A stretch of DNA of 10,865 bases. Source: a virus (taxonomy: Duplodnaviria; Heunggongvirae; Uroviricota; Caudoviricetes). Positions within the stretch are counted from its first letter, which is position 1. Every line of letters begins with the position of its first letter. Shown piece by piece: positions 7,798 through 8,028 of this stretch. Below the pieces are notes generated by a model. That model was not told the DNA's origin, ran no database searches, and worked only from the letters and a program-made list of their open reading frames with translations. The position numbers were made by a program, and so were the translations under genes. The stretch lies in the IMG/VR virus record IMGVR_UViG_2660238548_000023; one strand, 5' to 3'.

Positions 7798-8028
7798 TGT
7801 TCACCACTGTTCACCCTGCAATAAATGTATTTAGTATCAATATGTTAATGGGTGAACACTTTTGTAAAACTATTCACCAAAGTATTCACCTGTTCACCTT
7901 TTTGTATGATTTTTGAACAGTCACGGGTGAACAGGGTGAACAGTTGGTGAACACCTTTACAAAAAGTGTTCACCCCTTAACTTTATGAATCTAAAGGTGA
8001 AATAGCAAAAGGTGAACAGTTGAACACC
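7798..8028. repeat. iteron cluster (TGTTCACC octamers), putative replication origin / crr-like region
   Basis: Nine perfect copies of TGTTCACC or its complement GGTGAACA: forward at 7798-7805, 7808-7815, 7891-7898, 7967-7974; reverse at 7851-7858, 7926-7933, 7935-7942, 7946-7953, 8011-8018. Several degenerate copies (for example attcacc 7884-7890, tgaacacc 8021-8028) lie in the same AT-rich, non-coding stretch. Confidence 0.7.

Follow-up and report, generated by a model that had tools for sequence, protein, structure and literature searches.

A probable replication origin of twelve P4-type iterons in a PICI-type phage satellite of Escherichia coli

What is the role of a dense cluster of octamers lying directly behind a replication gene: is it the origin of the element that carries it, an accessory to an origin elsewhere, a set of operators or a relic? 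The question is raised by a stretch of DNA of 10,865 nucleotides (the window), in which an earlier note had described repeats of TGTTCACC downstream of a gene called primase and had read them as a putative ori/crr of the kind found in satellite phage P4. We conclude that the cluster very probably serves a PICI-type phage satellite, integrated in E. coli, as its origin of vegetative replication, with 12 binding sites for the element's Rep protein (consensus TGTTCACC). Origins of this type are known from P4 and from Gram-negative PICIs, one allele having been tested, and the findings on the array do not overturn current understanding. The novelty is modest. It lies in the exact P4 iteron and ori module found in PICI-type islands, with the modules head to head; in the movement of helicase, binding domain and array as one cassette, with iteron variants paired with binding-domain variants; and in a 'primase' that has no recognisable primase domain. 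The replicon of a common E. coli island class thereby becomes annotatable.

Twelve octamers in two inverted modules

Nine perfect copies of TGTTCACC were counted in the window, on both strands and all within 7798-8018. They are accompanied by three sites with a single mismatch and by two weaker, non-overlapping candidates with two mismatches, the latter occurring at about the background rate (position and strand given for each):

7798 (+), 7808 (+), 7851 (-), 7891 (+), 7926 (-), 7935 (-), 7946 (-), 7967 (+), 8011 (-): perfect TGTTCACC sites, exact match
7871 (+) TATTCACC, 7883 (+) TATTCACC, 8019 (-) TGTTCAAC: one-mismatch sites inside the array
7912 (-) TGTTCAAA, 7996 (-) ATTTCACC: two-mismatch candidates, weak

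With the one-mismatch sites included, the array extends over 229 bp (7798-8026). It starts 14 bp past the stop codon of the open reading frame at 5961-7784, and its GC content is 25-40%, as against ~50-60% in the flanking genes. The earlier note had placed nine perfect and at least four degenerate copies, in both orientations, within about 230 bp of AT-rich DNA immediately downstream of this gene. The location, the composition, the two orientations (12 sites in 229 bp) and the nine perfect copies all hold; the degenerate count was roughly right, three of these copies being clear and two weak. The note had also proposed a count against shuffled sequence and had named similar octamer density elsewhere as a result that would speak against the cluster. 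Dinucleotide-preserving shuffles of the window contain on average 0.33 perfect copies and at most 3, and none of 200 reached the 9 observed, which rules out chance or low complexity as the source of the array. Outside the array, one-mismatch copies occur at a background of 0.28 per 245 bp. Perfect copies are absent both from the rest of the window and from the part outside the array of a 34-kb stretch of a bovine E. coli genome (L003), which comprises an island of 98.8% identity and the chromosomal DNA on either side of it; in unrelated E. coli DNA (L088) scattered copies amount to ~3 per 28 kb. From these background counts, the density within the array is several-hundred-fold above background. 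A full-text search of the literature for the octamer gave only unrelated primer sequences, and there is no RefSeq feature at the array under the matches listed.

The 12 sites fall into two modules of ~100 bp, inverted about an axis near 7912. Reflection about 7912 carries the six sites of module A onto the six of module B with a deviation of 0-2 bp, and a repeat finder returns an inverted repeat (I1) with 39-nt arms at 7860-7898 and 7926-7964. The parts of the array are:

7798-7898: putative origin module A, with sites 7798 (+), 7808 (+), 7851 (-), 7871 (+, TATTCACC), 7883 (+, TATTCACC) and 7891 (+)
7899-7925: central 27-bp spacer, holding the dyad axis (~7912)
7926-8026: putative origin module B, with sites 7926 (-), 7935 (-), 7946 (-), 7967 (+), 8011 (-) and 8019 (-, TGTTCAAC)
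7816-7850: AT-rich spacer of module A, 35 bp, 77% AT, candidate unwinding site
7975-8010: AT-rich spacer of module B, 36 bp, 72% AT, second candidate unwinding site

The least stable 30-bp duplex of the whole window is located at 7820-7849 (-28.9 kcal/mol, the mean being -41.0), and the second spacer contains, at 7976-8005, one of the window's seven least stable 30-mers. Besides 7820-7849, three of these seven stretches lie in or beside the array.

Downstream of the array the following genes are encoded:

8071-8172 (+) and 8169-8279 (+): two small open reading frames, 33 and 36 aa, the start of the operon downstream of the putative origin
8276-8725 (+): single-strand DNA-binding protein (SSB; Pfam SSB, E=2.3e-16)

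The two small frames are chained to each other and to ssb via ATGA stop/start overlaps, an arrangement that suggests translational coupling. Neither matches a known family, and the RefSeq copies examined have no CDS between rep and ssb. Since the array is located between rep and this operon, its sites could mainly be operators, through which Rep would regulate orf33-orf36-ssb, or control copy number by pairing of arrays. A search of the DNA from rep to the genes that follow gave neither an intrinsic terminator, such as P4 has before its array, nor a strong or consensus plus-strand promoter, and it is thus likely that transcription passes through the array. A weak promoter-like pair can be picked out by eye (TGAACA, 17 nt, TATAAA; 8013-8041), overlapping the last sites, and plasmid iterons commonly serve both roles. 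However, 12 dyad-symmetric sites exceed the needs of an operator, the array holds the least stable DNA of the window, and its layout is homologous to that of the mapped P4 ori and of the tested PICI ori (see below). We therefore regard a primarily regulatory function as very unlikely; as a second role it is possible and compatible with that of an origin.

The protein encoded upstream

The gene that precedes the array encodes a protein of three parts:

5961-7784 (+): replication initiator 'Pri-Rep' (Rep), 607 aa, with TOPRIM-like N-domain, D5_N/SF3 helicase and C-terminal winged-helix origin-binding domain
5961-6365 (+): N-terminal domain, aa 1-135, TOPRIM-like fold (fold search)
7455-7745 (+): origin-binding domain, aa 499-595, presumed reader of the octamer (phmmer against PDB 1KA8)

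Rep matches the Pfam families D5_N, DUF5906 and Pox_D5, and its residues 122-597 are 49% identical to residues 301-771 of P4 alpha. Residues 499-595 match PDB 1KA8, the solved origin-binding domain of P4 alpha (phmmer, E=1.1e-23). Rep, like P4 alpha, thus joins an SF3 helicase to an alpha-type winged-helix origin-binding domain, and the C-terminal domain of DNA-binding type on which the first reading of the locus had depended is present.

The N-terminal part is different. In the alignment Rep has no counterpart of the primase region of P4 alpha (residues 1-300), where the zinc ribbon and the EGYATA TOPRIM motif are located: the first ~120 residues of Rep do not align to this region, and a direct comparison of the N-domain with P4-type TOPRIM using hhalign was negative. 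Searches with aa 1-150 against Pfam, NCBIfam and PHROGs returned nothing informative. The TOPRIM indication for this ~135-aa domain comes from the fold search only and is unaccompanied by sequence similarity to the P4 TOPRIM segment; read by eye, the catalytic Glu and the DxD motif appear to be replaced (FAGSD, YKAGH). The name 'primase' goes back to TIGR01613, a helicase-domain model that matches Rep. Given that the N-terminal residues match neither the primase region nor any family, the label is owed to this model and not to a recognisable primase domain. The earlier note's primase is accordingly borne out as a helicase with an origin-binding domain and is not borne out in the primase domain itself.

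In E. coli the same N-domain is joined to helicases of three types: D5/P4-type, DUF927-type and AAA_25/RepA-type. Common to three unrelated helicase types, the TOPRIM-like domain may have no enzymatic role and serve instead as an adaptor, bringing in a primase of the host or the helper. The first ~140 codons of Rep (5961-6383) are 98.8% identical to the start of the DUF927 replicase of a sister island (L004, 8859-9281).

Likeness to the P4 and EcCICFT073 origins

In the P4 record (NC_001609), TGTTCACC carries the label 'ori type 1 repeat', with six copies annotated in the type I iteron region of ori (9310-9413) and ten positions in crr (4291-4590). Crr, ~4.7 kb from ori, follows closely on alpha and is formed by two direct repeats of 120 bp. 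The record therefore agrees with the initial identification of the octamer as the type I iteron of P4, present at ori and at a crr just downstream of alpha. Binding of P4 alpha to these octamers is established (Ziegelin et al. 1993; Yeo et al. 2002).

The likeness to P4 ori goes beyond the octamer itself. The six sites of P4 ori have offsets of 0, 10, 21, 43, 86 and 96, on strands - - - + - -, and module B reproduces this pattern with offsets of 0, 9, 20, 41, 85 and 93. Module A (0, 10, 53, 73, 85, 93) corresponds to P4 ori reversed (0, 10, 53, 75, 86, 96). In agreement with this, module B directly and module A as its reverse complement align with P4 ori 9300-9424, with the sites in register; the alignment covers ~115 bp and reaches non-octamer positions, for example GTGTTCACCCnTTAAC..TG. 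In a multiple alignment the P4 crr repeats turn out to be more diverged copies of the same module. The comparison with ori and crr, which had been suggested as a check, relates both modules to the ori core. Each module thus has the number, order, orientation and spacing of the sites in P4 ori, and multiple copies of TGTTCACC in both orientations are packed into a short AT-rich stretch, as in P4. The differences are equally clear. P4 has one module at ori and two diverged direct copies at crr, whereas the window has two modules head to head. The P4 type II decamer, CAYTTAAAGY, is absent from the window, also when one mismatch is tolerated. The bipartite arrangement of an ori and a distant crr is not seen either: there is a single cluster in the window, in the island and in related loci.

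Position alone is no proof of origin function, because in P4 the cluster downstream of alpha is the auxiliary crr and the ori is ~4.7 kb away. By analogy, the array of the window, which occupies the matching position just downstream of the initiator gene and likewise consists of two modules (~100-120 bp) with the same octamers, could be an auxiliary cis region that assists a separate origin via Rep-mediated contact. However, the crr modules are direct, have five partly degenerate sites each and work with a distant ori, while the modules of the window are inverted, closer in sequence to P4 ori than to the crr repeats, and have no partner: no other TGTTCACC cluster is found in the window, in the 34-kb whole-island stretch or within ±10 kb of ~70 loci. 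In addition, in the homologous island EcCICFT073 the region 3' of rep acts as ori (PMC6092414). We consider a P4-style crr highly improbable. The array stands where P4 has its crr, while its sequence and its symmetry are those of a pair of P4 ori cores, and in view of the lack of a second cluster it is better described as a single composite origin than as one half of a split ori and crr. Of the original term ori/crr, then, the first half is retained, and the second, in its P4 sense, is dropped.

The host element is a Gram-negative PICI-type island and not a P4. The plus strand of the window encodes homologues of a tyrosine integrase, AlpA, a Rha-like protein, AntA/Ash, Rep, SSB, ProQ/FinO and PerC; besides rep and ssb, the following are used below:

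1-1254 (+): int, arm-type tyrosine integrase
2299-2502 (+): AlpA
3281-4804 (+): AntA/Ash fusion open reading frame, 507 aa
9169-9471 and 10394-10865: PerC-family genes, at least two

The hallmarks of PICIs are int, alpA and pri-rep in one direction, a length of 10-20 kb and a specific attachment site. In our case int, AlpA and Rep all point rightward, and in complete genomes the island adjoins tRNA-Gly, beside a type III secretion gene cluster; a tRNA scan of the window was negative. No capsid or packaging genes are visible in the window, and the P4 genes sid, psu and delta are found neither there nor in the extended island L003. The element-encoded SSB is likely a replication accessory, and its position after the origin is the same in EcCICFT073 and in other islands.

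In Gram-negative PICIs the ori is described as lying just 3' of pri-rep, with two sets of iterons flanking AT-rich DNA (PMC6092414, PMC10111431). Both features are present in the window, where the array follows pri-rep directly and iteron sets flank the AT-rich spacers 7816-7850 and 7975-8010. The experimentally validated case is EcCICFT073, located between roxA and phoQ in strain CFT073: with its rep-ori a temperature-sensitive plasmid gives colonies at the restrictive temperature (Fillol-Salom et al. 2018, PMC6092414), and mutation of rep abolished plasmid maintenance while deletion of ori reduced it (PMC6092414). The Pri-Rep proteins of PICIs are described there as different in sequence from P4 alpha, and the supplements of that paper contain no iteron sequences. 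EcCICFT073 Pri-Rep is 48% identical to the Rep of the window over its full length, N-domain included. The 290-bp gap that follows it uses the iteron TGTCTACC and has the same layout as the window, ++ / AT-rich / - / +++ followed by -- .. --, with sites at 22011+, 22020+, 22068-, 22088+, 22099+ and 22108+ on one side and 22141-, 22152-, 22220- and 22229- on the other.

The Rep identity together with the equal site layout makes the window array an allelic variant of the tested origin. The two islands are alike in the position of the array 3' of pri-rep, in the iteron sets around AT-rich DNA, in Rep architecture and in gene order (int, AlpA, Icd/Ash-like, Rep, ori, SSB, PerC). They differ in the iteron (TGTCTACC as opposed to TGTTCACC), in the capsid genes downstream in EcCICFT073, of which none is seen in the window, and in that EcCICFT073 is the one tested experimentally. 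A looser likeness connects the array with the SaPI-type origins of Gram-positive PICIs, which are described as located 3' of rep with iterons flanking an AT-rich stretch (PMC6092414). Both initiator families and iterons differ, and the likeness may be organisational only.

By analogy with these systems, we infer Rep binding, double-hexamer loading, a melting site and a source of primers for the element of the window. After induction, Rep would be made and its binding domains would occupy the 12 octamers. The dyad layout would set two SF3-type helicase hexamers in opposite orientations, the AT-rich spacers would melt, and the helicases would unwind outwards, the element's own SSB coating the strands. 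Priming and synthesis would then fall to enzymes of the host or the helper or, perhaps, to the TOPRIM-like N-domain, in which, however, no primase motifs are recognisable.

P4 and the Gram-negative PICIs have one common initiator/origin system, down to the octamer. We put forward tentatively, and as doubtful on balance, a wider reading in which the head-to-head pair of modules would be the ancestral, self-sufficient alpha-type origin that loads back-to-back hexamers and the split P4 arrangement would be derived, with cross-talk between PICI and P4 initiators and with the N-domain as adaptor. Given that this PICI family and P4 share the octamer, a 50%-identical binding domain and the wing motif, the initiators might fire, or compete for, each other's origins. 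If true, this would mean replicon-level cross-talk or incompatibility of two satellite families within one cell.

Relatives of the array and of its island

The array travels with the helicase and the binding domain. The segment concerned is:

6417-8050 (+): exchangeable replicon cassette of helicase, origin-binding domain and array

The Klebsiella satellite vB_KppS-Ant is homologous to the window over 6417-8050 only (76.7%), and the similarity stops exactly at the end of the array. The reciprocal case is the sister island L004, which is 94-99% identical on both sides and has 6384-8274 replaced by a DUF927 helicase; in the gap after the DUF927 gene there are TATCCGC/GCGGATA repeats and zero copies of TGTTCACC. 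Being inherited jointly with helicase and binding domain, the array marks the replicon of the element, as had been claimed at the outset.

A single cluster of ~220-230 bp, beginning 15-45 bp after the rep stop codon, is found in most of 80 Enterobacterales loci. A second TGTTCACC cluster within 10 kb on either side was sought in ~70-80 related loci with one mismatch allowed, and none except P4 has it. Among 10 relatives the site columns of the array are 85% conserved and the spacer columns 59% (Mann-Whitney p=2e-10), a difference that would also be expected if the sites were only operators.

Loss of function is a further explanation to be weighed: array and gene may be intact in an island that no longer replicates, the repeats having no present function. 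Some islands of the same family carry pseudogenes in the Ant/Icd region, which means that the window copy may be inactive, and no packaging or capsid genes appear in the window. On the other hand, Rep is a full-length open reading frame, identical to that of L003 (tblastn), and RefSeq annotates the same protein, WP_000833603.1, in two islands that occupy different places in the chromosome. The full set of 12 sites is preserved, and an O145:H28 genome contains the array at 100% identity. Of 5426 complete E. coli genomes, 685 have a related array, and sites are, as noted above, better conserved than spacers. A relic is, in our judgement, a most improbable account of the array, and we retain that of a vegetative origin.

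Relatives use other iterons at the same place, namely TGTCTACC, TCTCCACC, CTGTCCGC and TGTATAGT (variant-iteron loci L012, L013, L016, L020, L018, L021 and L077, and L088 at 22011-22236). In the users of TGTCTACC, TCTCCACC and CTGTCCGC the wing segment of the binding domain, aa 571-582 in the Rep of the window, is altered, mostly by insertions, as when KRKQCTRGPDKGRTISN replaces KKRTKEG-VRSN. L077, which uses TGTATAGT, is without such an insertion and differs in another part of the binding domain. In P4 and Xenorhabdus, whose proteins have an overall identity of only 48-64%, the wing motif and TGTTCACC are both retained. Wing insertions and iterons do not correspond one-to-one, since the 5-aa wing insertion of other TGTCTACC users is missing from EcCICFT073, and the iteron variant groups probably go back to no more than about four independent events. 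As far as can be read from their alignment, the relatives would constitute a natural series of specificity switches, and the iterons TGTTCACC, TGTCTACC, TCTCCACC, CTGTCCGC and TGTATAGT, with their variant binding domains, are material for the study of specificity change in a winged-helix initiator.

The alpha homologues in Pantoea and Erwinia (L078-L084) are full-length and P4-like, 773-776 aa, with the zinc ribbon and EGYATA. No repeat array can be recognised in the 420 bp that follow these genes, and there is no convincing TGTTCACC cluster within 10 kb; one weak group lies ~4 kb upstream, in L082 only.

Two records of plasmids were also matched. L085 (NZ_CP148328.1) was deposited as a circular E. 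coli plasmid of 10.8 kb but has the content of a PICI-like element: besides int, AlpA, Rep and capsid genes it carries an array in which TGTTCACC occurs in 9 perfect copies. The assembly may have caught a satellite in its excised or episomal form. The Klebsiella plasmid match is an integrated capsid-forming island, and a natural plasmid replicon was rejected as an identification in both cases. The two records are suggestive of autonomous replication and are not proof of it.

The islands carry PerC-type regulators and adjoin virulence loci in Shiga-toxin-producing strains. By virtue of these regulators and this neighbourhood, replication and mobilisation of the island bear on pathogen evolution. 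The extended island carries a third PerC-family gene and a Q-like antiterminator.

Several smaller observations concern the left part of the island. At 2210-2248, ~50 bp upstream of alpA, there is a 19-bp tandem repeat (AAATAGTACCCACCAATAA, 2.1 copies, 90% match), which could be a regulatory or recombination-directionality binding site. The AntA/Ash region is a variable zone (3281-4804 in the window, 15279-16703 in L003, 4906-6372 in L086), with partial antA pseudogenes and Icd-like genes of differing length, and homology between islands breaks at 4370-5100. Two full-length Rfam matches to the C4 antisense RNA, the family of the P4 CI immunity RNA, lie at 4471-4558 and 4952-5039 (+), with 72.9 and 70.3 bits at a gathering score of 45; the first copy is inside the AntA/Ash open reading frame, and the C4 RNA region of the window is 70% identical to the P4 cI region. 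Together, the two matches and the similarity to P4 cI suggest that the island may use a P4-like RNA immunity, in duplicate. Finally, in an O157:H7 genome (L089; NZ_CP038319.1 1783852-1802090) an island with a related array, 80.5% identical, is located inside a prophage gene for the terminase large subunit, matching the published 'helper-embedded PICI' configuration.
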